Source: Lama guanicoe (taxonomy: Eukaryota). Taken from it: 46,917 bases of DNA. The stretch is from NCBI GenBank assembly GCA_013239625.1, contig MU053758.1, forward strand, positions 3,891,490-3,938,406, in the 5' to 3' direction. Below the pieces are notes generated by a model, which saw only the letters and a program-made list of their open reading frames with translations, had not been told where the DNA came from and did no database searches. Positions 1 to 43,900 of the stretch are shown here, piece by piece; position 1 is the stretch's first letter; the number at the start of each line of letters is the position of its first letter. The position numbers were made by a program, and so were the translations under genes.

Positions 1-47
1 CACTGAAAGGTGAGGGCAGGTGAAGGGGGAGCCCCTGGCTGGCTTAC

Positions 48-4257: not shown

Positions 4258-4337
4258 CTCCTCTAGCAAACTTAACATCACTTTGACATCCTCTTGGGTG
4301 ATCTTCTTGACTGGCGGTGGTGCGACAGGACACAGCG
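4258..4337 (-). CDS. HAP1: HAP1 exon 2 (ALCPVAPPPVKKITQEDVKVMLSLLEE)
   Basis: ctctcacag| acceptor and |gtgtgt donor; 80 nt, phase 1 to 0; start of the HAP1_N (Milton/TRAK family) region. Confidence 0.95.
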
Positions 4338-5344: not shown

Positions 5345-5822
5345 CTTCCTTAAGCTCCCGAAGAAGGGCGATGCGCTCGGGGCCAGACACCGCAGACCGC
5401 CGGCCGAGGTAGTCAGCCGACGTCTTCCAAATGCCCGCCGCCTTTCCAGTCCCCAGGCCAGTGGCGCGGGGATCAAAGGGCCCTTGGCATTTGAAGCGGG
5501 TCCGCTGCGCGTCCGAGTTGTCGGGCACAGACTGAGCATTTCCCTGGACCGCCGAGAATGCGGACGCGCCCTGGGCTCCTGCCTCCGATCGAGCCTCAGA
5601 GGCTGAGCGAGCTCCCACCTGGGGTCCCGAGACGGATGTGGATCCAGATCCAGCTCCCTGTCCAGCCGCAGGTGCCTGCGCAGAAGTGGGTTCAGAGTCG
5701 GCAGAGGGCTCTGGAGTGGGGTTGGCTGCGGGCGGAGGAACCGGGGTAACTGCTGCGGGATCCCCGTGTCCCGGCCTGTCCCTGTCCCCGGGGCAGCCCT
5801 GCCCCGACTCTTTCGGGCGCAT
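5345..5822 (-). CDS. HAP1: HAP1 coding exon 1 (MRPKESGQG...LLRELKE)
   Basis: ATG at 5822 just downstream of a TATA box; translation resembles the HAP1 N-terminus (FKCQGPFDPRATGLGTGKAAGIWKT); ends at G|GTAAAC donor; 478 nt, phase 1, in frame with the next exon. Confidence 0.93.
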
Positions 5823-5855
5823 TTTGAGTCCGCAGTCGCCTGCCGCAGCCCGGCC

Positions 5856-5862
5856 TTTATAA
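5856..5862 (-). promoter_or_regulatory. HAP1 TATA box (TTATAAA)
   Basis: Isolated AT motif in a GC-rich tract about 34 nt upstream of the ATG, with GC-box-like sequence upstream (5880-5915). Confidence 0.75.
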
Positions 5863-7777
5863 CCTGTGCCTGGATGCGCGCCCGCCGGGCCGTACCACGC
5901 GCGGGAGGGGGCGGCCGTGGAGCAACTGGTGGTGCCCGGGAGAGGGGGTCGCGCATGGGGGCTAGCTAATGGGGTCGGAACAGAGCGCAAAAGGAAGCAA
6001 AGAGCAAGGAGAAGAAGCGAGTGGACGTTCCAGCTGGTTCCGCGGGTTTGGACTCCTAGTGCTGCGCTTCTCTCCCCTTCTCCACCTCCGGAGAATGGTT
6101 TTGCCCAAAGTCGCCGCTTCTCGGGGATTCGGGGGCAGAAACTCCGAGGTCCCTAACTGGGGGCCACCCCCTCGCTCCGCTTTAGCCCGGAGCTTTCTGG
6201 CTGCCTTTCCTGGATCTGGCTTGTGAGTTGGGGCCGTATTGAGCCTTTCCCCGTTAACCGGGAGGTAAATCCAAACTCCCGCACGGTCTCCCCACACTGC
6301 CCAGTCTGGCGCGTCACACACTGATCCTCGCGCTCACACCCCCAGTTCTCGAGCCTCTCAACAGCTCCCTTTCTTATTTCTTAGTTGGTCGTAATTGCCT
6401 TTCCTCGTGCTTTACCTCTGCCCTCGCTCACTTTGCCTACCTCCTTCCACGCTGGCAAACACCTGTTCTACCGGGAGACCCCGCTTAAGTGTCTCCGCGT
6501 TAGGACTCCTCCGACCCCGTCCTCACAGGCCCCAGGGCATCCTTTATGCGATGGCTGCAGTGGTCAGACTGTGACTCTCTCCAGGACCAGACCTGCGCCA
6601 CTTCAGCGCAGGAAGCGTGTCCTTTAGGGCGCAGCAAGGGACGGGACACATACGAGACTGAATGAATGAACTGTGGGGCAGCAAAAGAGTCCAGTGGATA
6701 TGTCTATGCCTTTGGACCAGAGGACCCTACAGGCCAAAAAGAGATGGCTGCGGCTCTGATTCTTTTAAAGCCTTAGGATCATTCTTGGTGCCCCGTTTCC
6801 TTCTTTTCAATATCGTCAATTAACAAATCCTACTTAATTTGCCTGCTAAATGTTTCTCAAATGTGCCATCTCCTCTTCATCCCCTCTGTTGTTGAGGCCT
6901 CATTCTCTCTTCTAGATTATTGTGATTCTATCCCCCATTCAACCCCATCCACAAGAATCCATCTCTAGCCCATCCTGTCACTCATATTCCTATCCTAGCT
7001 GAGGAATTCAGGAGCGCCTTCCCTAAGCCACTGCACCAAGCCAGAGCCCAGGACAGAGGCTATGCCCAAGTTCTGCACCTGGAACAGAGGCTGTTAGTGC
7101 TCACAACGTGCTTTGGACACCAAATGTCCATGACACAGTCTGAAACAAGAGATACAACCCAGAAAGAGGGCTCAGAGCACCCGTCCACCACCACCAGCTC
7201 TCCAGTGGAAAATCATTGTGACTAGAGTATTTCCTTCTGTCTGGGTCCATTCATTCATGTGACAAACATTTCTTGAGCCCCTGCTATTATACTAGGTACA
7301 GTGCTAGGCTCTCAGGCGAGGGCAGGGATCAAGAGAAACTAGATCACTGCTCTCCTGGAGTTTAGAGTCTAGAAGGAGAAGGCAGATAAACAAGAAAACA
7401 AGTAAGGTAATGACAGAGTGTGGGGAGCCCTCTGAAAGAAACAAACAAGGAGCTCTGATGGAGAAAAAATGGAAAGTACCTATGTGACAGGGTGGTCTGG
7501 GTGGGTAGGGGAGGAGAAATCATTCATTGCACAGGATTTTGCATCTCAGCCTACACCCCCACCTCACACAGCCCACTCATGCCCTCCCCCCTCAGATGAC
7601 AGCCTCTCTCCTCAGGTGCCTGTGTTTCTCACTCCTGATTGGTAAGTGAACCCTGGTGCCGATTCACCTCCCCTTCCCCAAATCCAGCAGCCCCACAGGG
7701 ATTCATCTGCCAGTTCATCAAAGAAGCAGCCCTGGCCCCTCATTATGTTGTTTCTGAAACAGTGACTCAAAATGCAC

Positions 7778-7870
7778 CGGGGGTGGTGAGTGGGTATAAC
7801 TTAATGGTAGAGCGCATGCTTAGCATGCAGGAGGTCCTCAGTTCAATCCCCAGTACCTCCGTTTAAAAAA
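7778..7870 (+). mobile_element. tRNA-derived SINE (Vic-1-like)
   Basis: Pol III A/B-box-like head (taatggtagagc...gttcaatccc), A tail, target site duplication aaaatgcac at 7769-7777 and 7871-7879. Confidence 0.88.
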
Positions 7871-8194
7871 AAAATGCACTCCCCTTATTGGGAAGTAAAA
7901 AGTGGTTCCCCTGAGGAATTCAGGCCCCTCCCAACCCTCGCCCACCTAGCCCCTGCTCACTCTTCCTCTCCTCTCTTCTCAACCAGATTCCAGGGCACTT
8001 CTGCCAAGTTTTTAAAGGTCACTCAGGCCAGAGGCTTTGGATAAGAAGATGGAACATCTGAGATCCACAGCTGCCTTCTCTGCTTTTCACCTGCTGTATC
8101 TTTGATGGTTATAATCTTAGGAACCTTAATATTTGTTGACTTCATCTCTTCTTTCATCTCAGCTCTTCTCATCCCCCTAAATTAACTTCTACTC

Positions 8195-9621: not shown

Positions 9622-9708
9622 GGGAGGAGGGTATAGCTCAGTGGTAGAGTGCATGCTTAGCATGCACGAGGTCCTGGGTTCAATCCTCAGTACCTCCATG
9701 AAAAAAAC
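9622..9708 (+). mobile_element. tRNA-derived SINE (Vic-1-like)
   Basis: gggtatagctcagtggtagagtgcatgcttagcatgcacgaggtcctgggttcaatcc, A tail, flanking repeat aataacactg at 9607-9616 and 9709-9718. Confidence 0.9.
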
Positions 9709-10708
9709 AATAACACTGGAAGGGGAAGCAGTTGGGGGCAGAGATGAAACAATGTTGGCCATGAGTTGGTGACTGTCATTGTAGGGGATCGTAATACTGT
9801 GCTCTCTTGCTCAGGTATTTTTTAAGTTCTCCAATATAAAATCTTACCTTTAACATCGTAATGCACAGACACATATTAGCCCCCTGATAATTCCCTATCC
9901 TCTACAAAAAGGGCCAAAAATCAGTTGTCAGCATCTCTCCTGCTTTGTCGCCCCAAATATTCCAATCTTACGTACTTTTACTGTCAGGGTGGCCACCAAC
10001 TTTTGGGCAGCACATTCAAGCTCTTCTTATTTGGGGCTCCCATCTCACCCACCTGCACCCTTGCCATCCCCTAACATCCCTTCCACTCCAGCCACACGGG
10101 ACTTCTACCCACTCTTGGGACCAGTCGTACTTTCATTCATTCATTTGACAGGTCTTTACTGAACCCTTTCTAAGGGCCTGGTACTGTTCTAGGTACTGAG
10201 GATACAGCGATGAACAAGACAAACTCCTCCTCTTAGGAACTTCTGCTCTAGTGAAAGCAGACAAGGTATCACCACCTATAATGTCACATGGTGACACCAC
10301 CTAGGATATCCTGCGGTGATACATTGTGGGAAAGAAAGAGAGCCAAGTAAGAGAAGGACGAACAGATGCTACTGTTTCAGAAAGGGCGCAGCTCCGTCGA
10401 GTGGCTGCCCCAGCACTCTCTCCAGCCACCAGCTTCCTGGACAGTCTCACTGTCTTGGACATCTCTTCATCTCCAACACCAAGCACAGAACAGAATATAC
10501 AGTAGGGGCCCATTCAATTTTTGATGAATAGGTGTTTGCTGAATTGAATTATCCCTGCCTTTGAGAATGCAGCCCTGAGGTCCCTGGGAAGTTTCAGGTG
10601 AAGAAGGAGGAAGTGAAACGGAGAAGACAGAGATGAAGGGGACCCTGCAGGCTTCCAGGTGACTGCATCTTCTAGGTCCCAGCACAGGTGCTGGCAACTC
10701 TCGCTGCA

Positions 10709-12707: not shown

Positions 12708-12824
12708 CTTTTTTTAAACAAAATTTTTAATTAAGAAAAAAAATGTTAAGGGAGATACTGGGGATTGAACCCAGAACCTTGTGCATGCTAAGCATGTGCT
12801 CTACCACTGAGCTATACCCTCCCC
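12708..12824 (-). mobile_element. tRNA-derived SINE (Vic-1-like)
   Basis: Reverse complement of the same head (gggattgaacccag...ctctaccactgagctataccctcccc). Confidence 0.88.
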
Positions 12825-14319
12825 CTCACATCCCCCTTTTAGCAGCAGAGGTGACACCCTTCAGGAAATCAGAACTCCAGACAGCCCCAACGATGCCCAC
12901 CCTCTCTGAGCCCTACCACTCAGCCCCAGGGGAGGAGATGTCACTGGGTATGAGTGGGAAGCTGTCCAGGCTGAGTGTCCATGCTGACAGCCTCAGTTCT
13001 CTGCAGCCTGCACGCTCCTGTACTCCAAAAGCTTGGAATTCTGGGCCCAACACCCCATCAGCCCTCTCAGGAACAGGCTCACCCCATCGGCAGGTGTTGA
13101 CCCCCATTGCCTATGGAGAGGGGATGCCTGCCTGCCAGAAACCACAGGTGAAGGAGAGACAGACATTGCCTTACAGACGCTATACCTGCTCTTCCTTCTT
13201 CAAACCTCAGTTCAGGCGCCACCTCCTCTGAGAAGCCTTCCCTGATGTAACCTGGCCAGAACTGGGCCCCTGCTCCTCTCTGTGCTTCCCTCTCTCAACA
13301 CACTGGTGCAGAGCCAAGAACAGCCACTGTGCCCCATTGCTGATACCTCTGAGCCCATCCCGGCCTACAGCAAGGGGGAGATGCTTTGTACCTTGACATA
13401 AGCCAGAAATAATGAGGTTGTCCTGAAACTGGGTCTGGTCTTCAAAATAATAAAGCTTGAGCTTTTCCCGTAAACCTGGACCCCCTAACAAAACAAGTGG
13501 ATTCCTGAAGCTAAGTCATGCCCTTTGTGAATGTGCTATGTGAAATACCAGCCACTTGCCGCCGGAGACAGGGCCGTGCTGAGGTTTCCCTTAAATCCCT
13601 GTTGTGTTTCCTATTTGGAGAGCAGGTCTTCCCTGCACTCTCACAAGTAGGCTCTCCGTTCCTTTCTTCTAAGCTTGGGTCCCGAGTCTTCCTTCAACAC
13701 AGGCTGTGAACACTGATCTCCCCGCCGGGGGACCCCACCAGACTCGCCAGCTCACGGCAGGCATTGCTGGTCCCCATCTCTGAGTCCCAGCGCCTGGCCC
13801 AGGCTGGCACCACCCAGTCAACGCTTGCTAGGTGATTTAGCCAACAAGGAGATTCCGTCGGTGGACAGGGTCTGATACACGCAGACCCCAGGCTATTCCT
13901 CAAGGCCCAGCTCTCCCCAGAACCCTCCCAACCTTGGGAGGAGGGCGGGCAGAGTACCTCGGAATTGAGTTAGGTGTCCTGGATTCATATCCCAGCCCTG
14001 GTGCTCACACAGCTGTGTCGCCTTTGAACGTTTCCTAACCTCTCTGAGTCTCAGGGGCCTCACCTTGTATAATTTACCTTCATTTAAAGACACACCTCAC
14101 AGGGCTGTGGTGATTAACAGAGATTATTCAATAAAACACTTAGCACCTGAGGGCTCAAAACTGCTGTCGTTAATGTTACTTAAAACAACTGAGTTACAGG
14201 AAGGTCACTAAAACTTCCTCGGCCTCAAAAGTAAAATGAGAGGCAATTACCTCCAACCTCAAAGTCGTTTTTTCTCAGACTCCCCACCCAGGTTCCTACG
14301 TCCCTGTCTTTGCTGTTCC

Positions 14320-19321: not shown

Positions 19322-19473
19322 CTAGGCCAGCATGTGGTCCGCAGTAGGGAAGGGGGGCCGGAGGCCGTCGCTGTAGGTGTCGATCGGATAGTCCCCGTCC
19401 ATGTCCATGTGCATCTCCAGGGGGTCCAGGGGCACATCACTCGAGTACATGGGGCGGTAGGTGGCATCCATGT
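19322..19473 (-). CDS. JUP: JUP exon 14 coding part (DMDATYRPMY...PTADHMLA*)
   Basis: ccttcccag| acceptor; 152 nt to TAG; plakoglobin C-terminus. Confidence 0.97.
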
Positions 19474-19735
19474 CTGGGAAGGAGAAAGGAGCTCCATCTA
19501 AGGGTCTCAGGCTACCCTGTGGGGGGCCTGGACAGACCTCAGCCACACTCCAGGGGGCCTGCCCTCCTCCCCAGACTCCCATGCCAGGGATATGGAGAGT
19601 ACACGTGAACACTACGGTAGCTGTCCCTGGTCCTTTGGCAATGGGGATACAAAGCCGCTTTGTCTCTCACACCCACACAGCACCCCGCCCCCCGCCCCAG
19701 ACTCTCTGGGGTCCTGAGGAACTCTGCACACTTAC

Positions 19736-19775
19736 CATCTGCATAGGGTTCATTGATGGGGATCATGCTCTGGGC
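19736..19775 (-). CDS. JUP: JUP exon 13 (AQSMIPINEPYAD)
   Basis: atccttag| acceptor and |gtaagt donor; 40 nt. Confidence 0.96.
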
Positions 19776-20079
19776 CTAAGGATGGAGACAAAGAGAAACA
19801 TTGTGGGAGAGGGGAAGGGTGGAAACGCAGGCTCTGGGCTGGGGGGCACTGAGAAAATGCTTCTATAAAGAGTGCTGGGGGAAAAGCAAAGACCCCTTGA
19901 AGGGACAGAGGATGAGATGGGGTCACACAGTGCCTTGATCAATTTCCGTCCTCAGGAACCTCCCCAGGGTCCCACCATTCATGCTTGGGGGCACTCATAG
20001 AACTAGAACAGCCCAGGGGAGGGGAGTGGAGGGCAGACAGGACTGGAGAATGGGTACTGGGAGCTGCCCTACCCAGGAT

Positions 20080-20352
20080 CAGGGCAGCCACCAGCTTATA
20101 TAGCACTTTGTGAAAGTAAGAGAAAGGCACCCCTGCCCCAGTACTTTATATTAGTTTGGACAAAATAAAAATGCCATTATGCAGGTCAAAAACAGGTAAG
20201 ATGGTGTAACCTACAACTTCCATCTGTTGAGAATTGTCATAAATGATTCAATTATAAAATAAAAATCCATGAAGTTGACAGGAGATAGGAGCCCCCTTAA
20301 AAGTGCCATCTTTGTGCAGTGTGCAACTTGCACAACCATATACTGCAGCCCA
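20080..20352. mobile_element. Possible old hAT/Tip100 (MER91-like) DNA transposon remnant
   Basis: cagggcagcc at the left and ttgtgcagtgtgcaacttgcacaaccatatactgcagccc at the right resemble recalled MER91 termini. Confidence 0.45.
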
Positions 20353-20367
20353 ACTCCAGGTACTCAC

Positions 20368-20489
20368 AGCCTCCCAGGCGGCAGGGTCATGCTTGAAGAG
20401 GGAGTTGGTGAGCTCCACAGACACACGCTTACGGTAATCTGGGTTCTTGTCCTCGGAGATGCGGAACAGGACAGCAGCGGCGTAGGTGG
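20368..20489 (-). CDS. JUP: JUP exon 12 ([41 protein letters not shown])
   Basis: Translated by hand; ctgttcag| acceptor and |gtgagt donor; 122 nt. Confidence 0.96.
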
Positions 20490-20602
20490 CTGAACAGAGG
20501 GAAGAAGACAGGCCAAGTCAGGCCCCTGCCTCCACCCAGACTGGGGGAACAACATCCAGCCTCTCCCCTCATCGCCCCCATAGCCCCAGCCTAGACCCTC
20601 AC

Positions 20603-20753
20603 CGGTGCCCTCGTTGCGGGAGTGCAGGAGCTCCATGAGTGGGGCTGAGGCCCCCTCAGCATCAATGGCGTCGGCTGCCTCCTTGTCCTGGGCCAGCTCA
20701 CACAGCACCCCAGCAGCTACACGCTGGATGTTCTCCACCGAGGAGTACAGGAG
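20603..20753 (-). CDS. JUP: JUP exon 11 ([12 protein letters not shown]...SRNEGT)
   Basis: tccccag| acceptor and |gtgagg donor; 151 nt; armadillo repeats. Confidence 0.97.
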
Positions 20754-21024
20754 CTGGGGAGGGGGGCGCAGGGCCAGCGTAAGGCAGGCCGGCAGCACAC
20801 CTCACAGCCCTGCCCACCTCTGCCTCCCTTTTTTGGATTTAACCCAAGTCCACACTAGGAAATGTATAAAGTCTAAGAAAAGTATAAAGAAACAGAAAAG
20901 CAGCTACAATCCCCCAGCCAGATACAGCTTGTTAACACACTGGTATACTTCCATTGGATTTTTATCATCACTTTTAAATATATATATATTTACATATATA
21001 TGTAAATCATATATATATGATTCC

Positions 21025-21147
21025 CTTTTGGCGGAGGAGGTAATTGAGTTTATTTATTTATTTACTTTTTTAATGGACGTACTCGGGACTGAACCCAGGA
21101 TCTCGAGCCTGCTAAGCACGCTCTACCACTAAGCTATACCCTCCCCC
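21025..21147 (-). mobile_element. tRNA-derived SINE (Vic-1-like)
   Basis: ggaggtaattgagtttatttattt...gggactgaacccagg...ctctaccactaagctataccctcccc. Confidence 0.87.
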
Positions 21148-21678
21148 TGTAGTACAGGAGAGCAGTTCTGACTCTGTTGTATCTGTTCTTTTAGCTCTAA
21201 CCAGTGTGCCGTTTTCTAGGTTTATTCTTGCTAGCTCTGCACTCTTTGTAAAACATTGTTGCCTTTAGCCTGTCTGGTAAACAGGAGAGCCTTTTCTCAA
21301 GGCTCTGACCTTTAAGGACATTAACACTTCTGCACTTACATAAAGACAAGCTGCAGAATAGAACCTAACTTTTGTTTTGTTGAAGGTTTACACGGAAAGG
21401 TTTACACGGACACCATGACCTGACCCACGTGGACAGCTGCAAGAACAAAGAATTCCTGCAGCAAGAAGTTTGTAACAACCAACCACACCCCCTCCCGTTT
21501 TTTTGTGTAAAAGGAGCCTGTATTCTGACTGGAGCAGGATGGTTCTCCAAGACGTTAGTCTGCCATCCTCTTGGTCTGCCCGCTTTCTGAATAAAGTCAC
21601 TATTTCTTGCCCCAACACCTCATCTCCTGATTTTTTGGCCTGTCATGCAGCCAGCAGAACAGTTTGGACTTGGCAACA
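21148..21678 (+). mobile_element. Solo ERV LTR (ERV1-like), antisense to JUP
   Basis: TGT...ACA termini, AATAAA 21590-21595, degenerate TATA (tgtaaaa 21506-21512), 14-bp tandem repeat 21383-21410, flanks ccccc/tcccc. Confidence 0.8.
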
Positions 21679-21784
21679 TCCCCGACAGATTCCTGTTTGT
21701 TTTTTTAAATCAAATATTGTAGCAGAATGCTTTTTCCCATATAATTCAATAGCTGTTCTTAAAAACCTGAGTTCATATTGATAT

Positions 21785-22010
21785 TCAGGAGAGAAAGAGG
21801 CAAGGTAGATAGGCAGGGGATTGAGAGGTACAAACTACTAGATATAAAATAAATAAGCTACAAGGGTATATTGTACAACACAGAGAATATATCCCAATAT
21901 TTTATAGTAACTATAAGTGGAGCTAATCTTTAAAATTATGAATCACTATGTTGTACACCTGAAATTTACATAATACTGTACATTAACTGTATCAATAGAA
22001 AAAAAAGGAA
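21785..22010 (+). mobile_element. 5'-truncated L1 3' end
   Basis: gaggtacaaactactagatataaaataaataagctacaagg...atcactatgttgtacacctgaaa followed by an A tail. Confidence 0.75.
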
Positions 22011-22208
22011 GGAAGGAAGAGAATGCTACAAAGCAAACAAAAACAAAAATTAAAAATCCTCATCGATCACAATTGGAGGTAGTTACCGGTACCAATTCCT
22101 TGCTTGGAACATTAAAAATTAAAGGATTAAAAAAAATTTAAAGGAAAAAAATTTCAAAGACAAAAAAATTCTTCAACACCATTGTCTATGACCTCATGAT
22201 ATAATGGA

Positions 22209-22340
22209 CTTTTTTTTTTTTTAAGTTTAGATTTTTACTTTCAGTTTTTTGGTTTTTGTTTCCCCTTAACAGAGGCATTGAGAATTTTACCCAGGACCTC
22301 GTGCACGCCAGCACATGCTCTGCCACTGAGCTATACCCAC
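22209..22340 (-). mobile_element. Diverged tRNA-derived SINE
   Basis: T-rich tail then cccaggacctcgtgcacg...ctctgccactgagctataccc. Confidence 0.8.
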
Positions 22341-22430
22341 CAAACCCCTCAGTCCGTCCTCAATTCTAAGTAAGGTTGCAATTGTCAGCGGTGTGCATAC
22401 ATCTGTATCATATTTAAATCACATCATGTT

Positions 22431-22573
22431 GGGGAAGGTATAGCTCAGTGGTAGTGCATGCCTTGCATACACAAGGTCCTGGGTTCAATCCCCAGTACCT
22501 CCATTAAAAACAAGTAGATAAAAACCTAATTACCTCCCCCGCCAAAAATAAATAAAAACAATTTTTCTTAAAA
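22431..22573 (+). mobile_element. tRNA-derived SINE (Vic-1-like) with 15-bp TSD
   Basis: ggggaaggtatagctcagtggtag...gggttcaatcccc; aaatcacatcatgtt at 22416-22430 and 22574-22588. Confidence 0.92.
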
Positions 22574-23266
22574 AAATCACATCATGTTATTTCAAAAAGA
22601 GCAAGTCCCAGACCTGTACTACTTGATCAAAGGAGACCAACATTTTCAAGGCTCTCTATACATACTGTGAAATTGCTTTCTGGAGAGGTTTTACTACCTC
22701 ATCTTCTCCTAGTGGGGTATGAAACAGCCCATTTTATAGCATCTTCACCACCACAAAGCACTCCCATTTTTTTCTCCGCCAATTTGGTAGTGGAAACTGG
22801 GCTCTCACTGTGCGGTAAGCTTCATTCCTTTAAACTCCCAGGGCTGAGCATTGCTTGTTCATGAGCCACCGGGGAATTGCATGTCCTCCTCCTATTACAC
22901 GACTAGGGTCTACTATTACCGAGCTCTCTTATATGAAAAATACCAAATTCTTGTCTACTCTGATGCTTGCAAATATTCTCCCAGTTTGCTGTTTACTTTT
23001 TAATGCTTTCAGGTTGTCTAACATTAAAACATCATTCTTGTTTTTATTTGTGGCCTCCCTTGCCTTTGAGCTTGGAAAGGCTTTCCCATGCTAGGATTTG
23101 TTAAGTGGTCACTCTTGGTGTGGCCACTTTTCTCCAAACTCCTCCAAAGACTCTTGATGCCTAGCCAAGATGCCCTCAAACCCAAGGCTACCAACCTTCC
23201 CCTTCCAGTAGTGGGGATAAGCAGGGGTTGGGGGGAACCTCTCCTGCCCAACTGCCCCAGACTCAC

Positions 23267-23386
23267 CTGCACAAACAGGGGGATGGTGTTAAGTCGGAAG
23301 ATCTCCATGCGGTTCATGGGATCCCGGGCAAGGATGTGCAGGGCTCCAGTGCAGCCCTCCACGATCTCCTCCATCCTCACGCCATC
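23267..23386 (-). CDS. JUP: JUP exon 10 ([11 protein letters not shown]...IPLFVQ)
   Basis: ttgtgcag| acceptor and |gtgagt donor; 120 nt. Confidence 0.97.
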
Positions 23387-23591
23387 CTGCACAAGAGAAG
23401 GCACTGGGGTATAGCAGCAGTGGCTCTTAGGCGTGGACACACACACACCATGACACTAGCAACTCTCTCTGGTCCTTGGAGTTGGTGTCAATTGCAACTT
23501 GCCTCCCAAGATGCTCACATGTGCACACATTCACAGAAGACACCCTGACTCCTGGGGGGGTGGCAGTCCCAGGCCCCACCAGCTCACTCAC

Positions 23592-23747
23592 CGTGTAGGG
23601 CTGCTGGGTGCCTGCAGCCACGTGGCGCTGGGCATCCTGGTGGGCCTTGACCAGCAGCTGGACAAGGCGGGGAATGACCGCGGCCTCCTGCAGTGGGGCA
23701 TGGTTGGCTGGGCACAGGGCCAGATTCCGGATCAGGCCGATGGTTGC
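23592..23747 (-). CDS. JUP: JUP exon 9 ([13 protein letters not shown]...GTQQPYT)
   Basis: cttgccag| acceptor and |gtgagt donor; 156 nt. Confidence 0.97.
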
Positions 23748-24807
23748 CTGGCAAGAAAACGGACACCCATTCAGGGCATTTCCTGGGCATCTGGAAGACC
23801 CCACTTCCCCAGCATCATCTCTTCCCTCTCATCTCGGTTCCCCTAGGCCAGCCACGGACATGCTGGAAGAACTCCAGAAAATGAGACCACCCCTAGCCAT
23901 GCCCCTTACTCCATAGAATCTATGGGTCCTCATGTCTGACTCTAACAGTCCCTCCTAAGATGATACCCCATTCCAGAATATTCCACCAGCCCCTACGCCC
24001 TGGCCCTAACCCCTGTCCCTTCTCTCTTAACCACCCCCTCTCTCCAACAGACAACACTACTTGCTTTTCTGACAGTTCTGATTATCAGGGAGTCCTCACT
24101 GGGGTGACCCCAAAGCCTCCTGCTTTGGTGATGTTCATACTGTAATCAATCCCGAGTAGGGCAGCTCTGGGAAGAGGTCTTCTTCCCAGGTCCCCCAACT
24201 CCCAAGTCATTCTGGCCTCCTAAGTTTCCTCAGGGTCTAATAAAGCAATTTATTATCTCATTTGATCCTAAAAACAAGAAGCCAGGAGGGCAGGGATGAA
24301 AAGCATAGGAGAGAGGACGTCGTGAACACAGGGTGGATAATCTGCCAAGGTCACTTGTCAACTTAGCTGCTGAAACAGGAGGCAAACCCCACCCCCACCC
24401 CCTGCCTCAAGCTTGCCTTGACCAAGCCCATGGAGGGGCCACCTGCTGCCCTGTCTCTAAAATAAAAAATATATAATCACTTAGCATCATTCTTATCTGC
24501 ACTGTTTAGCTGTTGAAAATTACAGCAGTAAGCCCCTGCCAGCTGGCTCCAGACCCTAGTCTGTGGTAGCCCCTCCTTGAAGCTCTATTCTCGGGGATGG
24601 CCCAGCTGTAAGACAGAAAGATTCTGGATGTCAGAGCCATTGTGAAGGTCTAAACCGTTACATAAGAGCGGGATGAGCTTTTGCCTTATTGGAGCCACTG
24701 TATTTCAGGCCTCTTTGTTACAACAGCTTTGCCTGTACCGATACAGCGCTTACTCCTGTCTTCAGAGCTCCTTCCCTCCCCTGACCCCACCATGCAGCAG
24801 GCGGCAC

Positions 24808-25146
24808 CTTGACCAGTGGCCACTGGTTGGGCTGGTTAAGCAGCTTCACAATGGCTGGGATGCCGTAGTTGAGGCGCACAGAGTTCTGGGCCATCTCCGC
24901 CTCGGGGTGGCGGCTGGTGAGGTGGCGCAGGGCACAGACAGCAGGCTCTGTGATGTCGTCCTTGTCGCCCGCGCGCAGGATGGCATGGATGAGCGCCTCC
25001 ACGCCGCTGTTCTGCGTCACCAGCGTCTTGTTCTTGCTGTTGTTACACGTCAGGTTGGACAGAGTACCCGTGGCACAGGTGAGGACGTTGACGTCGTCCA
25101 CGCTCAGCTGGTTCACCAGGATCTTCAGCACGCTCTCCAGGCCCTC
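24808..25146 (-). CDS. JUP: JUP exon 8 ([10 protein letters not shown]...NQWPLVK)
   Basis: gaccccag| acceptor and |gtgccg donor; 339 nt. Confidence 0.97.
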
Positions 25147-26357
25147 CTGGGGTCGGGGGAGGCAGTGGAGAGTGAGGGAGACTCCCCAGAGCAGGGTGTT
25201 CCCAATATATCCGAGAGGAGGAGGACAGCCTAAGGGGGTCTCCAGCACACTTAGCTGATGATGCACCCTGCCGGTGTGTGCCCTCTAACTTTCACCTCCG
25301 TGATCCCACCGACACCCCATGAGAGGGTAATTCTAACCCGTGGGGCAGCTGGGGATCAGAGAAGTTGAGGGCTTTGCCCACAGACACACAGCTAGTGAGC
25401 TGGATATGAACCCAAGCCCATCTCTAAGCTCCATGCTCTTTCCTCCACCCTCTCCTGCCCCTGCTCTGGGTCCACAGATACAACAGAGCTCTACCCAGGC
25501 CAAGGGAGGCCCCTAAGCCAGAAGGAAACTGTTGAGGAGGCCATGTGCTTCGGTAACAGGCCCAGCTGACCTACTTTTACACACTTCTCACCTTCCTAGG
25601 CCTTCACTGCTGCCCACTCAGTGGTCCCCAGGCCAAATCTGCTTTCAGGAAACATCCCTAACCCAGAAGTCGCCCTTCTCCCAGGGAGAGTCATGTGGAC
25701 CTTGTGGTAGAACAGAAAAACCCCAGGCTCTGGGGGGCAGACATTTCTGGGTTCAAATCCCAGCTCTGCCATTGACTGGCTGTGGCCAAGGGCCATTCCT
25801 TAACTCCCAGAGCCTGTTTCTTCATCTAACAATGGACCCCACACTCTCCCTCTGGGTATCGAAAGGGGTAAAGAGCCAGTGTCCCCAAGTGCCTGGCAGA
25901 GTCCAGCACATGGTGTTTGATAAGCAGCCCACTGATGCAGTTCTTAGGAGTGACAGTTAGGGTGCAAGAGGGGACCAGAAGACCTGTCCTAAAACTGCAT
26001 TTCTCCCTCAGTTGTTTTTAGCCATCGGGGCCCCCAAGCTGTCTCTCGCACACTGCTACTCCCTGCCCATGGTCTAGATCACAACAGTTCCTCTGGTACC
26101 ATCTGAACCCCGGCTTAGAAACATCAGCCTCCTCCTCCTAGTCCCCTTCTTGAATCCCTAAGAGAGGTTAGAGCCTTAGGTGAAAGGGATGAGGGGCTTG
26201 AGGGCACTTCCAGCCTCAACCACAGTGGAGCCAGATTTAGAGGCCTCAAGCCTCACAGGGCTCCTTAAGGTCAGACTCCCAGACAGGAGGCTGGCCGTGC
26301 TAAGACGGGAGGCCAAGGCAGCTGAGGAAGCAGACCCAGGCCCAACCCGTCACTCAC

Positions 26358-26461
26358 CTGCTTGGTGGCCACATCCGAGAGGTTGCGCAGGGTCCAGAGG
26401 CAGTTCTGCACCAGGCGGGGGCTGTTGCTGGTCAGGTGTTTACCCAGGGCCTGCATCCCAC
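26358..26461 (-). CDS. JUP: JUP exon 7 ([11 protein letters not shown]...DVATKQ)
   Basis: caccccag| acceptor and |gtgagt donor; 104 nt. Confidence 0.97.
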
Positions 26462-26571
26462 CTGGGGTGGGAGATAGGGAGCACGTCAGCCATAGGGGAG
26501 CACAGTGGATGGAGCCCAGCCACTAGTTCGGGCCCCTATCCTTGCCCACCCAGCCACATGGGCCATCCTCA

Positions 26572-26832
<261 letters not shown>

Positions 26833-27530
26833 CTAAAATCTGAATAGCTTTTGTGATGATTAAATAAGCCAAAATGTTGGAGAAAATGATAATATACAGT
26901 GCTGGCAAAGATGAGGTGAAACTACTAATAGATATCACCGATAGCATTGTAAACAATGCTATCCTTTTGGAAAGTATCTGGCAATCTGGGAAAATGCTTA
27001 GACATATTAAAAACCCTTAGCCCCACTGATGATAAAAGTGTTCTCACTCTTTGGGAAAAGCTGTGTCCCCAAAGATGTTCATCACAAGTGGATATTCATA
27101 AAGATGTTCATAAAGATGGAAAATTGGGATCAGCATAGATGCCCTCCGTCAGAATACAGTCCAGGTCCTCCACTTAATGAAATGTGATTTGCCATTATAG
27201 AGGGTGATTCTGAGGACAGTTGAGCCAACAAAAAAAAAAGCTTTTAAAAATATCATGTAGAAAACAGACACAAACTGCTCTGACTACAACTATGTACCAA
27301 TATGTCCACAGGAAAGCACTGGAGGAAGCACGTGAAGATAACAGGGGTTATGTGAGAAGAATGAATGTCTTCTTTCGCTTATCCTCAAAATATTCAGTAA
27401 TATGATGAAACACGTACACCTGCATATACATATGCAGTTAACCAAAAAAGGGTTAAGGAGGCAGTGGCTGGAAGCTGCAGCTGGACGGAAGGTGATGCCA
27501 CGGGAGTGGCGGTCCTGGTTGGGGGCCCAC

Positions 27531-27732
27531 CTTGCTCTCCTGGTTGCCATAGGCCAGGAGCTGCAGGCAGTCGGTGGTGATGGCCAGGAACTTGGGGTTG
27601 TTCTTGTTGAGCAGGGGCACCATCTTTTGCAGCCCATCCGCCAGGCGCACCGCCATCTTGGCGCCCTCCTGGTAAAGCAGCAGGTTGTGCAGCGTGGTGA
27701 TGGCGTAGAACAGGACAGACTCCACGGGGGAG
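27531..27732 (-). CDS. JUP: JUP exon 5 ([11 protein letters not shown]...GNQESK)
   Basis: catcccag| acceptor and |gtgggc donor; 202 nt, phase 2 to 0. Confidence 0.97.
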
Positions 27733-28341: not shown

Positions 28342-29497
28342 CTAGCCTCACTCTTACATACAGAGCAAACAGCATCTCTCCTCTCTCCACTGGGACCATG
28401 GCTCCTGCTCTGGGCTCCCGGCTCAGTGCTAAGCTCACAGTTAAGTCTTCATGACACCTGTCCCAACTGAGTAACTGTCATGTGGAAGGCCTCGTCCTAG
28501 AGAGGCATTACAAGGGATTCATAGAAGAGTGGAGTCAGTGTCTCCACCCTCAGGGAACTGGTATGTGAGCAGATGGGCCATGCTGACTGCCACTGTGAGA
28601 AGGGCGGGCCAGGAGACCCCTCCACGATGCTCAGACACACCCAGGTCAGCCTGGTATGGAGATAAGGAAAAAGGCAACATTGCCAGGCTGGGAAAGATAA
28701 AGGTGGCAAGGGACTTTGCACAGGATACTCCCTCTGCCTGGAATACTCTTCCCTTCATCTACACCAGCCAAACTCCATCCAACTGCCAATCCCCTGACAT
28801 TAAAGTCAACAGCTTCTTATAGCTCCTCTGACCGATCTTGGACACACCTTTGCCCTAGTCTATACTGTATCCTAATAACTAACTTGCGAGTTACATGTCT
28901 GTCTCCCCTGCTAGGCTGTGAGCAGCTGAGCACCAGGACTGGGCATGGCTCTATACCTGGCACGTAGCAGGTGCCCAGGGAAGAGAGGGGAAGAAGTCCA
29001 AGTGAGGGAAGCAGTAATACCAAAAAGCATGACACTCATTTATATGTGTGTCTGGGTACTTCTGTAGGCACGGGCATAAAACAAAATGTTCATTGCATGG
29101 CCTATTGGTGAAAAATAACCTGACTGTGTATTTTTCTATTTTCTCTAATGAATCCTTTTAAAATAAAAATAAGCCTTTTCATGTATTAGAATTAAAACAA
29201 TGTTCCAATTAAAATTGGGAAGGCTGTCTTATTTGTTTACAATCCACTTCAGTTTCTGTAAAACCAGTTCTTTTGGAAACCAAATAGAGGTCCCCATTTG
29301 GATGCAAAATAAGACCACCCAGATGCAAGACAGATGAAATCAAATTTAGATCGACCCTTTGATTCTTATAAATTTTATCAGAATGCTTTGGCCCAAATAG
29401 CTGGGACTCATCTGAGACATTTGGAATGATTTCTGCACTGGGGAAGCGTAGACGCCAAGAGGGGAAACTTGCACCCACAGTGAGATGGGGTGGGTAC

Positions 29498-29736
29498 CTG
29501 AGCATGCGGACCAGGGCAGGGATGCCGCCTGACTTGAAGATGGCAAGGAGCCCCTCACGGTGATGGGAGAGGTTGTGCAGGATGCTGGTGGTGCAGCGGG
29601 CCGTGTCCAAGTCACTGGTGTTCTGCATGGTGCGCACGACAGCCGCCACCAGCTGGGGTGAGCCCATCAGCGCCCGCCGAGACGCCTCCTTCTTTGACAG
29701 CTGGTTCACAATCATGGCCGCCTTGGTCACCACTAC
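29498..29736 (-). CDS. JUP: JUP exon 4, copy A ([17 protein letters not shown]...ALVRML)
   Basis: gtccccag| acceptor and AG|gtaccc donor; 239 nt, phase 0 to 2. Confidence 0.9.
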
Positions 29737-29972
29737 CTGGGGACAGCGGGGAGGAGGGGAGGATGTGAGCAGATGGGCCAGGCTGACTGCCACTGAGAGG
29801 GAAGGGCCAGAAGACCCCTCCACAACATTCAGACACACCCAGGCCAGACTCTTCCTGCTAATGGGGCTCTGGGTCAATGACCTCGCTCCACCCCAGGTAG
29901 GGCCCTCTCCTACAGACATCTGATGTCTCCCCTCCCTGCCACGCCTGTACCCCAGCCAGGCCCCTCACAGAC

Positions 29973-30232
29973 CGGGTCCTCATCATTGAGCAGTTTGGTG
30001 AGCTCGGGCAGGGCCCGGGTGGCCAGCTCAGCGTCGTCCTGGTAGTTGATGAGATGTACAATGGCTGACTTGAGCAGCTGGGATGGCTCGGCCAGCCGCT
30101 GCAGGTTGGTGGTCTGCCCCTCCACCTGAGTGGCCAGCAGCAGCGAGCTGTCTTCTCCTGTCACGCCAGGACACATGGCCTCCCGCACCCGCTTAGCTCT
30201 GGCCGTTGTGGACATCTGGTACTCCAAGTCAC
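29973..30232 (-). CDS. JUP: JUP exon 3, copy A ([22 protein letters not shown]...LLNDEDP)
   Basis: gcccccag| acceptor and |gtctgt donor; 260 nt, phase 1 to 0. Confidence 0.9.
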
Positions 30233-30669
30233 CTGGGGGCCAACAGGCAGGGACTAAGCTGCAGGAAGTGGGCAGGGGGACACTGGGGAGCAGGGCAGGC
30301 TGGGCAGACTGTTCCCCTGGGTTCTCTGGCTGCCTCTAGCCCACCACTCACAGTTCTGCTTCTAACTAGTGATCTTAAAGAGGTCACATCGCCTCAGTTA
30401 CATCATCTGTAAAATGGGGCACCACCTGTTCTGTCCACTGCAGGGAATTCTTATGAGAATTAAACGAGACAACAGTTGTAAATTGCTCTTAGAGGACATG
30501 ATGCATGTACTTGGACATATCACTATAAGCAGATTATTGTATGTCAACTATACCTCAATAAAGCTGTTGGGTTTTGGTTTTTTTTTTTGGAATTAAGCTG
30601 TTTTTTTAAAGCAGAAAAAAATGTCAGTGATTATCACTATTAGTAGGAAGAGCTAACTTTGTAAAATTT

Positions 30670-30895
30670 AATTTTATCTTTTTAACTGAAATATAGTTGA
30701 CTTACAATGTTTCAGGTGTACAACAAAGGGATCCAGTTATGCATTTATATATAAATCTATTCTTTTTCTGATTCTTTTCCAACATAGGTTATTATAAGAT
30801 ATTGAATATAATTCTCTGCGCTATATGGTAGGCCCTTGTTGGTTATCTATTTTATATATGTTAATCCCAAACTCCTAGTTTATTCCTCCCCCACC
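30670..30895 (-). mobile_element. L1 3' end fragment (duplicated at about 32900-33086)
   Basis: atatagttgacttacaatgtttcaggtgtacaacaaa...taggttattataagatattgaatata. Confidence 0.75.
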
Positions 30896-31689
30896 TTAGC
30901 TAACATTTTTTTCAGTACAGGACCTCTGCCTGGAATACTCTTCCCTTCATCTACACCAGCCAAACTCCATCCAACTGCCAATCCCCTGACATTAAAGTCA
31001 ACAGCTTCTTATAGCTCCTCTGACCGATCTTGGACACACCTTTGCCCTAGTCTATACTGTATCCTAATAACTAACTTGCGAGTTACATGTCTGTCTCCCC
31101 TGCTAGGCTGTGAGCAGCTGAGCACCAGGACTGGGCATGGCTCTATACCTGGCACGTAGCAGGTGCCCAGGGAAGAGAGGGGAAGAAGTCCAAGTGAGGG
31201 AAGCAGTAATACCAAAAAGCATGACACTCATTTATATGTGTGTCTGGGTACTTCTGTAGGCACGGGCATAAAACAAAATGTTCATTGCATGGCCTATTGG
31301 TGAAAAATAACCTGACTGTGTATTTTTCTATTTTCTCTAATGAATCCTTTTAAAATAAAAATAAGCCTTTTCACGTATTAGAATTAAAACAATGTTCCAA
31401 TTAAAATTGGGAAGGCTGTCTTATTTGTTTACAATCCACTTCAGTTTCTGTAAAACCAGTTCTTTTGGAAACCAAATAGAGGTCCCCATTTGGATGCAAA
31501 ATAAGACCACCCAGATGCAAGACAGATGAAATCAAATTTAGATCGACCCTTTGATTCTTATAAATTTTATCAGAATGCTTTGGCCCAAATAGCTGGGACT
31601 CATCTGAGACATTTGGAATGATTTCTGCACTGGGGAAGCGTAGACGCCAAGAGGGGAAACTTGCGCCCACAGTGAGATGGGGTGGGTAC

Positions 31690-31928
31690 CTGAGCATGCG
31701 GACCAGGGCAGGGATGCCGCCTGACTTGAAGATGGCAAGGAGCCCCTCACGGTGATGGGAGAGGTTGTGCAGGATGCTGGTGGTGCAGCGGGCCGTGTCC
31801 AAGTCACTGGTGTTCTGCATGGTGCGCACGACAGCCGCCACCAGCTGGGGTGAGCCCATCAGCGCCCGCCGAGACGCCTCCTTCTTTGACAGCTGGTTCA
31901 CAATCATGGCCGCCTTGGTCACCACTAC
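31690..31928 (-). CDS. JUP: JUP exon 4, copy B
   Basis: Same translation and splice sites as 29498-29736; only one copy can be used in an intact mRNA. Confidence 0.85.
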
Positions 31929-32164
31929 CTGGGGACAGCGGGGAGGAGGGGAGGATGTGAGCAGATGGGCCAGGCTGACTGCCACTGAGAGGGAAGGGCC
32001 AGAAGACCCCTCCACAACATTCAGACACACCCAGGCCAGACTCTTCCTGCTAATGGGGCTCTGGGTCAATGACCTCGCTCCACCCCAGGTAGGGCCCTCT
32101 CCTACAGACATCTGATGTCTCCCCTCCCTGCCACGCCTGTACCCCAGCCAGGCCCCTCACAGAC

Positions 32165-32424
32165 CGGGTCCTCATCATTGAGCAGTTTGGTGAGCTCGGG
32201 CAGGGCCCGGGTGGCCAGCTCAGCGTCGTCCTGGTAGTTGATGAGATGTACAATGGCTGACTTGAGCAGCTGGGATGGCTCGGCCAGCCGCTGCAGGTTG
32301 GTGGTCTGCCCCTCCACCTGAGTGGCCAGCAGCAGCGAGCTGTCTTCTCCTGTCACGCCAGGACACATGGCCTCCCGCACCCGCTTAGCTCTGGCCGTTG
32401 TGGACATCTGGTACTCCAAGTCAC
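32165..32424 (-). CDS. JUP: JUP exon 3, copy B
   Basis: Same translation and splice sites as 29973-30232. Confidence 0.85.
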
Positions 32425-32824
32425 CTGGGGGCCAACAGGCAGGGACTAAGCTGCAGGAAGTGGGCAGGGGGACACTGGGGAGCAGGGCAGGCTGGGCAGA
32501 CTGTTCCCCTGGGTTCTCTGGCTGCCTCTAGCCCACCACTCACAGTTCTGCTTCTAACTAGTGATCTTAAAGAGGTCACATCGCCTCAGTTACATCATCT
32601 GTAAAATGGGGCACCACCTGTTCTGTCCACTGCAGGGAATTCTTATGAGAATTAAACGAGACAACAGTTGTAAATTGCTCTTAGAGGACATGATACATGT
32701 ACTTGGACATATCACTATAAGCAGATTATTGTATGTCAACTATACCTCAATAAAGCTGTTGGGTTGTTTTTTTTTTTTTTGGAATTAAGCTTTTTTTTAA
32801 AGGAGAAAAAAATGTCAGTGATTA

Positions 32825-32899
32825 NNNNNNNNNNNNNNNNNNNNNNNNNNNNNNNNNNNNNNNNNNNNNNNNNNNNNNNNNNNNNNNNNNNNNNNNNNN
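32825..32899. other. Assembly gap (75 N)
   Basis: Run of n characters. Confidence 1.
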
Positions 32900-33108
32900 A
32901 CAATGTTTCTACAACAAAGGGATCCAGTTATGCATTTATATATAAATCTATTCTTTTTCTGATTCTTTTCCATCATAGGTTATTATAAGATATTGAATAT
33001 AATTCTCTGCGCTATATGGTAGGCCCTTGTTGGTTATCTATTTTATATATGTTAATCCCAAACTCCTAGTTTATTCCTCCCCCACCTTAGCTAACATTTT
33101 TTTCAGTA

Positions 33109-33803
33109 CAGGCACACCTCAGAGATACTGTGGATTCAGTTCCAGACCACTGCAATGAAGTAAATATCACAATAAAGTCACACAAACTTTTTGGTTTCCT
33201 AGTACATGTGAAAGTTATGTTTACACTATATGCAGTGTATTAGGTGTGCAATAGCATTATGTCTAATAAACAACAAGGACCTACTGTAGAGCACAGGAAA
33301 CTATGTCCGGTATCTTGTAATTACCTATAATGGAAAAGAATCTGAAAAAGAATAAATGTGCGTATATAAATATATAGTAGATATATATTACATACATATA
33401 ACTGAATCGCTTTACTGTACACCTGAAAACAACATTGTAAATCAACTATACATTATCAAAATAAAAAAATGAATGTTAAAATGAAAAAAGTACATATCTT
33501 AATTTTAAAATATTTTATTGTTAAAAACTGCTAACCATTATCTGAGTCTTCAGCAAGACACACAGCAGTAATATCAATGGTCACTGATCACAGATCATAA
33601 GAAATATAATAATCATGAAAAAGTTTGAAAAATTACAAGAATTACCAAAATGTGACACAGAGACACAAAGTGAACAAATGTGGTCGGAAAAATGGCACCG
33701 ATAGATTTGCTCCATACAGGGCTGCCACAAACCTTCAATTTGTAAAAAACACATTATCTGCAAAGTATAATCAAGTGAAGTACAATAAAATGAGGTGTGC
33801 CTA
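33109..33803 (-). mobile_element. Internally deleted Tigger1-type (TcMar) DNA transposon
   Basis: TIRs caggcacacctc (33109-33120) and gaggtgtgccta (33792-33803) flanked by TA; both arms match recalled Tigger1 ends. Confidence 0.85.
33268..33490 (+). mobile_element. L1 3' end inserted inside the Tigger element
   Basis: caacaaggacctactgtagagcacagg...ataactgaatcgctttactgtacacctgaaa plus an A tail interrupts otherwise colinear Tigger sequence. Confidence 0.8.
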
Positions 33804-35183: not shown

Positions 35184-35391
35184 CTTGGCTCTGGGGCACC
35201 GCCTGGGTGTAGGTGGTGGTCTTCTTGAGCGTGTACTGGCGCCCGCAGGCCTCGTCCTCCTCCATGATGCCCTTGCTGCTGACCGAGGGCACGCAGGTGT
35301 TGGCCCCCGAGTGGATGCCCGAGTCATAGGTGTACGTCTGTTGCCACTCAGTCACCTTGATGGGTTGTTCAATCAGGTTCATCACCTCCAT
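35184..35391 (-). CDS. JUP: JUP exon 2 coding part (MEVMNLIEQPIKVTEWQQTYTYDSGIHSG...VPQSQ)
   Basis: Strong Kozak GCCACCATGG; DSGIHS degron at 35308-35325; exon starts 35399 after cccag|; G|gtcagg donor; 208 nt. With one copy of exons 3-4 the CDS is 2238 nt (745 aa). Confidence 0.97.
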
Positions 35392-40857: not shown

Positions 40858-40992
40858 GGCGGGAGGATATAGCTCAGTGGTAGAGGGCATGCATGAGGTC
40901 CTGGGTTCAATCCCCAGTACCTCCACTAAAATAAAGAAGTAAATAAAGAAACCTAATTACCACCCCCTAAAAAGAAATAATTTTTTTAAAAA
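40858..40992 (+). mobile_element. tRNA-derived SINE (Vic-1-like)
   Basis: gggaggatatagctcagtggtagag...gggttcaatcccc; flanking repeat taaaatgat at 40846-40854 and 40993-41001. Confidence 0.88.
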
Positions 40993-43900
40993 TAAAATGA
41001 TCAGATGTTACTTTTTCAACCAAGTGGGGGTGGTGGTCCATGTAGTGCAACCTCCACCTCACCCCCAAAAAAGCAATGTATTGATTGTCCAGCCCCACCC
41101 ATTTCTCCTGTGTCCCTGCCACTCGCCAGACACAAGAATCAACTGTCCCCACAGGGGGAAAGAAAGCAGACCTGTTAACGCACATTCTGCAGGTCATGGA
41201 AAGCTGAGCCTAGCTTCCTGCCTTGAGCCTCCAAAGGCTAAGAAGCCAGGAGGCTGAGCAAAGGGGAGTGGTCAGTTTTCTCTTCAGCTTGGCCAAGGAA
41301 GTTGCTGGAAACTGGGGCAGTCTGTGCCTCTCAGACCTCCACCAGATCCAACCGTGTCCCAGGAGGGAGCTTCGTAGTGTCGCTTACAGGAACACCAACC
41401 CGGATGACCTGTCCCAGACACAATGCTCTTTCTCTTCACAGGGGTCACAGGGCCAGAGGCTCCAGGCTATCTGCCCCTCACATCCAGGTCTCTCCTTCCA
41501 AAAGACACAAGACTGAGATGTTTCTCCCCAGGGACCCCAACAGATTTCAGACTTGCCCCCAAAGGTAGTGGATTTCTGCCTGCCCTCTCTCCCGAGTCAG
41601 GCTGGCCCTCCCCCAGGTCACAGGGATGGGGCCCTGCTCCATCCTCTTCAGAGAAAAGCTGGCTCTGAGCCTCCATCAGCATCTCTCTCCTACTCTTCAA
41701 CATCTCCTCTCTCACAGGCAGTAAGTCCTTCCTCCAGTCTAGCCTCCACTCCTTCCAAAACAGTCCCAATTGCTCTTGTGTCCTGTCCTCAGGGTTGTTG
41801 GAAAACCACAAACCCGTCACCCTCTTCAGAGCCATCAGCCAGGACTGAGTTATTCGAGCTATTCTGTCACAGCAAGTCCCCTCAGCCTTCTCGAGGATCA
41901 ATAATCCCCATGCTGGGGTCCCCTCCTTACCCTCAGGGGATCCAGAAGCCCAGTGCTGATAGGCTCTGTACCCAGACTGATACACACAGAGGCCCATGCT
42001 GGTGTCAGGTGCCCAGTTGGCAGACGTACCAGAGCCAGGCAGGTCTGAGAGGACAGTGACACCAGCCCCTCCCTCGAGGACCAAGGCTCTGCTGACCCCA
42101 CCCCCATCACCAGAAAGGCTCTCTCAGCAGAAAGAAACCTACTCCCAGCCCTCAGGGCTCCCAGCCCCAAAGCAGAGGGTTGCCAGTTCCCCGCCCAAGA
42201 GCAGCCTGGCAGCCTTGACTGGTAGAGTCCTGTAGGGCAGTGGCCCAGGCCTAAATCTGACTTTCATTTCTCTCCACACCCCAGGGAACAGGACCCCCTC
42301 CTTTTATCTTGGCACAGCCCCAAGCCCCCAACAAATCAGACAACTCCCACTTCCTATGCAGGGACAAGCCCAGAACAGTCCATGGTTCTGCCCAGCTCAA
42401 GCCAGGCGAAGACAACAGCTTTGACTTCTGCCCTCCTCTCCCAGCCACAACCTCCTCCACACATCCGCCACAGCCCCTGGCCCTGGGGACACAGCCCCCT
42501 CCACCAAGAACCAAAAACCAAGGCATGGGGGAGGTTTCAGAGGGCTGGAGGCTGGGATATGAGTCACCCCCACCTGACAAACCTGCCCCCACCATCACCA
42601 CCCACACACACCATCCTGGGCCCTTTTGAATTATCTTCTCCCCAAATTCCCAAGCAGAGACTGTCAAAAAGGGATGGCAGAAATTCTTCCCAGAGCCACA
42701 GTAGGGTGGTATAGCAGGTCAGACTCTGGGCTTGGAGCCAAAAGACCCAAACGCCAGCCTTGGCCCTCCTTGGGTCTTGCTGTGCAACCTTGGGCAAGTG
42801 ACTTAACTTCCCTGAGTTTCAATTTCCTCACCTGTGGAATGAGGTAATGATACTCGAGGGGTGGTCATAAGCGAGGGATGGTCATAAGGATTAAGCGAGA
42901 ACAGTTAATGAAAGTGCATGGAATCTGAAAAGCCATCCCTTGCTTTTTAAGTTACCATTTATTTGATATCATTATTCCCATTTTGCCAAGGAGGTACTGA
43001 GGCTCAGAGAGGTAAGGTGACTTGACCAAGGCCACACAGATAATGAGTGACAGAGCTAAGAATCAAACCTAGCTCAGTCCAAGCCTAAATCCCATCTCTC
43101 CAAATAAACAGCCCTTCTGTGTATGAGTCAATTGCCCCATTTCATTCTAAGGTAGCTCTTCTTCCCAATCCCTCCCAGTCTCTGAGGAGAGACCCTCCCT
43201 ACCCCCCAACCCCGCGGCAAGCAATGGTACCTGCCCCATAGTTACCTCCTTCGTTCCCATGAGCTGCAATCCTCAAAGCCTCAGCCCTGGCAGCCCAAAC
43301 AGAGGTTCCAGAGGGAATAGGGTGTAACTGGGGCTCGGGGTGGGGCGGGGTGGAGGGTGCTAATGTCACCCAAGCTGGGGCCTGATCTATTAAGAAATGA
43401 CTAATTGGATCATACCTTTTTTTCTCCCTCCAGTCCAGTAAGTAGCCAGTTTGCACCTCCTAGCAACCTTCTGGGTATTATCTTTTCATTGCCACAAACC
43501 AGATTAGTTAAACGAATCATTTAACCAGAGTAATTACAATGCCTTCCCCTCCTCCACTTTGGCAGAGAAGAGGGAAAACAGGTTATTTCACCCAAATTCC
43601 ATGCCCTTGTGACTCCCCAGAGGTACGTACCACCCACCAGAGCAGAAGAGGGATAAGGTTCCATCCTGACTCTCCCCTGACCCAGGGCGGAGCCTGACTC
43701 CAGCCCAGGACACTCCTTGTGGATGGTCTGCCCTCTGCCCCACTCTCCAATCTACAGCCACAGTGGAGCTGTAGGGCGGTGGGGTCTTCCCAAGTGACTC
43801 AGGGCAAGCAACCTGATTCCCCCAATCTTGCCCTCACCCCAGGAATGAGGGAGCACCTGGCTCTTACATTCCCCTCTTCTCCCCAAAGAGGCCAGAGAAG

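Follow-up and report, generated by a model that had tools for sequence, protein, structure and literature searches.

A 2.19-kb stretch carrying exons 3 and 4 of the predicted plakoglobin gene (JUP) stands twice, in direct tandem, in the genome assembly of the guanaco (Lama guanicoe), and we consider it most likely, with a probability of about 0.8, to be a false duplication in which two haplotypes of a single locus were assembled one after the other. The repeat lies in a window of 46,917 nt, the whole stretch of DNA analysed here (positions 3,891,490 to 3,938,406 of the forward strand of contig MU053758.1, GenBank assembly GCA_013239625.1), and all coordinates below count from its first base. 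The first-pass annotation of this DNA, made from the letters alone, had also favoured two haplotypes in tandem; this is still the best reading, by inference from the allele-like differences between the copies and from the gapped state of the second one. Among assembly errors, false duplication is one of the most frequent, and it can pass for the duplication of an exon (Rhie et al. 2021, PMC8081667); false exon gains have been defined by Ko et al. 2022 (PMC9516828).

The near-perfect tandem duplication of exons 3 and 4 described in the first-pass annotation was confirmed by an exact 20-mer self-comparison of the window together with an alignment of the copies. Shared words numbered 1767 at an offset of 2192 and 166 at an offset of 2191, with the next offset reaching 11; the window contains only one long repeat and only one run of N. 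The parts of the repeat are as follows.

28720 to 28730, plus strand: left flank, ACAGGA followed by TACTC; its first six bases are the same as the six bases preceding copy B.
28731 to 30921: copy A, 2191 bases with no N, comprising part of JUP intron 4, exon 4, intron 3, exon 3 and part of intron 2.
30922: additional single A at the join, to be read either as one-base filler or as the first base beyond a 5-base microhomology with the left flank.
30923 to 33112: copy B, 2190 positions including 75 N, with 10 differences from copy A.
32825 to 32899: the 75-N assembly gap in copy B.

Copy B does hold the N gap reported earlier, but the gap sits inside the copy, 1902 bases from its start, and not at the join.

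Three of the 10 differences are clean transitions (T at 29182 for C at 31374, A at 29473 for G at 31665, and G at 30503 for A at 32695), two of them at CG sites; true single-nucleotide polymorphisms (SNPs) likewise tend toward transitions and CG sites. Further substitutions lie at 30574/32766, 30576/32768, 30577/32769 and 30612/32803, and the rest are a 1-base deletion at 30600, a 5-base deletion of 30714–30718 and an A/T transversion at 30782/32973. The three transitions named in the first-pass annotation were thus correct and allele-like, but they made an incomplete list. Clean divergence between the copies is 0.16% (3 of 1830 bases; 95% interval 0.03–0.48%), which, within this wide interval, fits camelid heterozygosity, given as 0.74 per 1000 in the dromedary, 1.16 in the Bactrian camel and 2.66 in the alpaca (PMC6389616).

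Seven of the 10 differences fall within 80 bases of the N gap, a zone making up 7.6% of copy B (P = 1.4e-6), and when the three changes in a T tract are counted once the clustering is 5 of 8 (P = 1.1e-4). Five of them lie within 60 bases to the left of the gap, the 5-base deletion lies 10 bases to its right and the A/T change 74 bases to its right. This clustering suggests thin read support for copy B. Copy A is complete where copy B is gapped, and the matching 70 bases (30634–30703) have a G+C content of 23%, which puts them in the bottom 1.3% of the 70-mers sampled across the window. The anchors flanking the gap stand 85 positions apart in either copy; the 70 missing bases and the 5-base deletion together equal the 75 N. 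When the join is read together with the left flank, a 5-base deletion follows 6 and 10 bases after the starts of the two copy B pieces. We infer that a shared gap-filling step produced the 5-base loss near the left end of each piece, a simpler account than two mutations; such a gap-filling habit is read here from a window with no second gap.

The gene is identified by its sequence matches as plakoglobin, on the minus strand, and not as beta-catenin. Over residues 34–112 of plakoglobin chain 3IFQ_A, exon 4 is identical throughout (79 of 79), and it scores 163.2 bits with 3IFQ plakoglobin, against 141.5 bits with the best beta-catenin; exon 3 likewise hits chains of catenin and plakoglobin, and exon 8 carries a Pfam Arm match above the cut-off. 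When one exon 3–4 pair is used, 13 coding exons, all with AG/GT ends, give a 745-residue frame with one stop, in which Ser68 and Gln184 fall at positions matching the human variant numbering (hand count against PMC7729882). The exons are arranged as follows.

35184 to 35391, minus strand: JUP exon 2, coding part from ATG (first coding exon), single copy.
32165 to 32424, minus strand: JUP exon 3 of copy B, 260 nt.
31690 to 31928, minus strand: JUP exon 4 of copy B, 239 nt.
30233 to 31689, minus strand: chimeric 'intron' that includes the join, from exon 4 of copy B to exon 3 of copy A, 1457 nt, its donor and acceptor being the normal ones of exon 4 and exon 3.
29973 to 30232, minus strand: JUP exon 3 of copy A, 260 nt; its bases 2–4 (30231–30229) read TGA, a stop if spliced after exon 4.
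29498 to 29736, minus strand: JUP exon 4 of copy A, 239 nt.
19322 to 27732, minus strand: JUP exons 5–14, single copy, frame intact to the stop codon.

The two copies of exon 3 are identical, as are the two copies of exon 4, and their AG/GT splice sites are intact. Exons 3 and 4 together measure 499 nt, entered in phase 1 and left in phase 2. On all these points, as on the gene itself, the first-pass annotation was borne out. The gene is like plakoglobin in its 745-residue frame and in exon 4, which equals 3IFQ_A over 79 residues; it is unlike it in the exon pair doubled in the assembly and in one Pro-to-Ser change relative to 3IFQ. This change lies in exon 6 (26589–26733, minus strand), which reads VCSSNK where human plakoglobin 3IFQ has VCPSNK, in an armadillo repeat that is otherwise near-invariant.

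Ordered inclusion of the four exons allows 16 combinations, 3 of which (3B–4B, 3B–4A and 3A–4A) give 745 residues. The other 13, including the default path through all four exons, stop early. On the all-four path the TGA at 30231 places the stop at codon 237 and leaves a protein of 236 residues. The earlier prediction that splicing all four exons shifts the frame therefore held, but translation would end at once, two bases into the second exon 3, and would not run on into a long out-of-frame tail. Since this stop lies 1877 nt upstream of the last exon junction, nonsense-mediated decay is expected by the established rule. In-frame rescue by skipping one exon was considered and rejected; the frame is restored only by skipping a whole set of exons 3 and 4. 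An RNA junction from exon 4 to exon 3 is no proof of a duplication in DNA, as back-splicing yields the same junction. A literature search for circJUP listed only fly work that appears unrelated.

In mice, global loss of Jup kills embryos, and heterozygotes live, with right-ventricular signs (PMC7327121). Two patients with early JUP truncation, one of them p.Gln184*, died at 11 and 18 days, and the parents of other JUP frameshift probands are described as heterozygous carriers (PMC7729882). So early a stop in the four-exon product, after 236 residues, counts for a false duplication, given that loss of this gene is lethal. Because heterozygotes are viable, this argument excludes only a homozygous duplication, and an assembly can show one allele. 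The first-pass annotation was thus right that a homozygous frameshift is unlikely, and we regard a real homozygous JUP duplication as very unlikely, but its lethality argument leaves room for a heterozygous null allele (PMC7327121, PMC7729882).

To account for the repeat, we suggest that each chromosome would carry one JUP locus with one exon 3 and one exon 4, and that the assembly wrote the 2.19-kb stretch twice. Copy A would be part of the contig entering from the left and ending at 30921, and copy B would be the other haplotype in two pieces, one spanning 30923–32824 and one running out rightward. The scaffolder would have placed the copy B pieces correctly relative to each other, but after copy A rather than over it. 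The overlap, or 'negative gap', could then have been bridged with a single filler base or through a brief spurious overlap, so that no N would be left at the join. The clean differences would be heterozygous SNPs, and those at the gap edges would mostly be poor read ends.

An arrangement of this kind resembles heterotype false duplication (PMC9516828, PMC8081667) in that adjacent near-identical copies differ as alleles do, the pair contains an assembly gap, errors cluster in one of the copies and a single gene gains whole exons. It differs in that the JUP gap lies inside the second copy rather than between the copies, the join being continuous; false copies are described as mostly separated by gaps, though a wrongly filled gap sometimes leaves them linked by sequence that lacks support (PMC9516828). 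It is also like the negative gaps of PBJelly (English et al. 2012, PMC3504050), in which overlapping contigs are written in series, with flanks that are often of low quality. Unlike the validated overlaps of 1–43 bases described there, the JUP case would need 2.19 kb, that is, a retained haplotype contig.

Several observations weigh against a false duplication. The sequence runs through it without N, and the ACAGGA before copy B recurs at 28720–28725, five bases ahead of copy A. One reading of the join is a 5-base microhomology with a 5-base deletion, and a one-base insertion is an equally good one. In 198,696 random breakpoint pairs drawn from the window, by a test picked after the join had been seen, the chance of such a match is 0.42% on one side, that of a six-base match on either side 0.83%, and that of the observed matches on both sides together 0.015%. 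Real tandem duplications typically show microhomology of this sort (PMC6913153, PMC10899794). The mark, which is absent from the first-pass annotation, somewhat favours a real event; the same trace would be expected from a gap filler that merged sequences at a short overlap. Unequal exchange between homologues would also give allele-like differences, and the N gap lies in very AT-rich DNA, where a real second copy would be thinly covered too.

Public sequencing runs were searched with 147 words sampled from a 1441-base stretch round the join. Among the 24 runs listed (DNA or unlabelled, from 7 studies and 5 organism codes), 19 contain 0.71–0.84 of the words and none contains all 147; an estimated three or so of the words span the join, so that these shares cannot resolve it. 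By the same shares, relatives differ by roughly 0.6–1.1%.

A false duplication and a real heterozygous null allele are both known kinds of event, and the second is the leading alternative. It would be a recent intragenic tandem duplication on one chromosome, perhaps arising by a template switch at the 5-base microhomology (of the fork stalling and template switching or microhomology-mediated break-induced replication type, FoSTeS/MMBIR), possibly between homologues and with the loss of 5 bases. The allele would read exon 2-3-4-3-4-5, stop at codon 237 and probably be lost to decay, the animal living on its normal allele. The unbroken sequence over the join, the microhomology reading with its chance of 0.4–0.8%, the direct orientation, the 1457-nt middle intron with normal splice sites, the stop far above the last junction and the viability of heterozygotes (PMC7327121, PMC7729882) all agree with this. 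There are also human precedents. A duplication of TRPS1 exons 2–4 shows microhomology at its junction and splicing of exon 4 to exon 3 that leads to a premature stop (PMC6913153), and an EDAR duplication of 9.2 kb has a 3-base microhomology (PMC10899794). The JUP repeat is like them in its direct tandem copy of internal exons, its microhomology, the splicing of the last to the first copied exon and the premature stop. It is unlike them in being known from an assembly alone, whereas the TRPS1 and EDAR duplications were found in patients, measure 9–36 kb and were confirmed by Sanger or long-read sequencing and by dosage. For JUP, none of the literature matches listed concerns an exon duplication, to judge by title and abstract start.

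Against a real heterozygous duplication, a copy made from a single chromatid would be identical to its source, not 3–4 SNPs apart from it, and the second 5-base deletion, at the edge of the N gap, points to software. Extended homeology of the two breakpoint neighbourhoods was examined and rejected, their likeness being at chance level (P = 0.28, 20,000 random pairs). A gapped assembly of the short-read type usually collapses adjacent copies that are 99.8% identical, which also counts against two real copies. Out-of-frame duplications in an essential gene are, in our own judgement, rare compared with false ones. Our probabilities are judgements that set out from prior odds of about 20 to 1 that an exon repeat in an essential gene of a gapped assembly is false and not real, odds then lowered for the ungapped, microhomology-like join. 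On this basis a real heterozygous duplication is unlikely, and a false duplication is preferred.

The annotation had also raised a locus that must use one exon pair at a time. Here the duplication would be real and homozygous or common in the species, splicing would retain exactly one exon 3 and one exon 4, and decay would clear the rest. The 3 combinations of 16 that yield all 745 residues would supply the protein, the donors of exons 3 and 4 match only 6 of 9 consensus positions, and decay might filter out the other products. Such donors are nothing special in this gene, however, since scores of 5–6 are also found at the unduplicated exons 5, 8, 11 and 12. The 13 combinations that stop early include the default, and exons and splice sites are identical, so neither copy is marked for skipping. 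In clusters of mutually exclusive exons, joint splicing is prevented by a very short intron, incompatible splice sites or competing RNA pairings; the middle intron here, at 1457 nt and with ordinary GT-AG sites, is long enough to pose no such block. In a scan of six intron parts (15 pairs) for docking and selector pairing, the longest complementary runs were 8–13 bases, against about 8–10 expected; this crude scan took exact matches only and used no splice-site model. Half dosage already gives heart signs in mice (PMC7327121). Exclusive use of one pair is thus unsupported, no mechanism for it having emerged from the splice sites or the intron-pairing scan, and we hold this reading to be very improbable.

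An older duplication lies close to the repeat. Positions 28563–28652, in intron 4, repeat some 90 bases of JUP intron 3 (29763–29850, and again 31955–32042), with 82–95% identity over two blocks. This older copy excludes the pyrimidine tract and acceptor of exon 4 and ends 78 bases ahead of the start of copy A. It shows an earlier real local duplication at the same spot, and it could also have misled read placement. At and after the end of copy B, 33109–33290 resembles the 5′ end of what we take to be a Tigger1 DNA transposon, and by this label the repeated unit would end four bases into the element; the bases before the end of copy B resemble what is presumably an L1 3′ end.

In the rest of the window, coding exons like those of HAP1 occupy 1–6150 on the minus strand, with an acidic low-complexity tract at 3452–3580; the Pfam HAP1_N match at this left end of the window is weak and below the cut-off (E = 2.3e-6). 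Upstream of the first JUP coding exon, a stop-free frame of 218 codons at 41470–42123 on the minus strand has as its only Pfam match TerS_C, also weak and below the cut-off (E = 0.008), and is probably not coding. Short tRNA-like short interspersed nuclear element (SINE) copies, which we take to belong to the camelid SINE family, lie on both strands at 7792–7880, 9623–9717, 12746–12825, 21113–21144, 22310–22341, 22434–22524 and 40862–40946.

If the duplication is false, it is a reference error able to distort JUP gene models and to split reads between the copies, and it could hide heterozygous variants in a gene of heart and skin disease; knowing this would help curation, without adding to biology. 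A real heterozygous allele would be a camelid plakoglobin null, a recessive lethal allele for skin fragility and cardiomyopathy that would be worth screening for; lesions of this kind are well known in people. Were one-pair splicing true, this essential desmosomal gene would hold a mutually exclusive two-exon module that had only just arisen, seen before its copies diverged, and of the three readings only such a working one-pair locus would be surprising.

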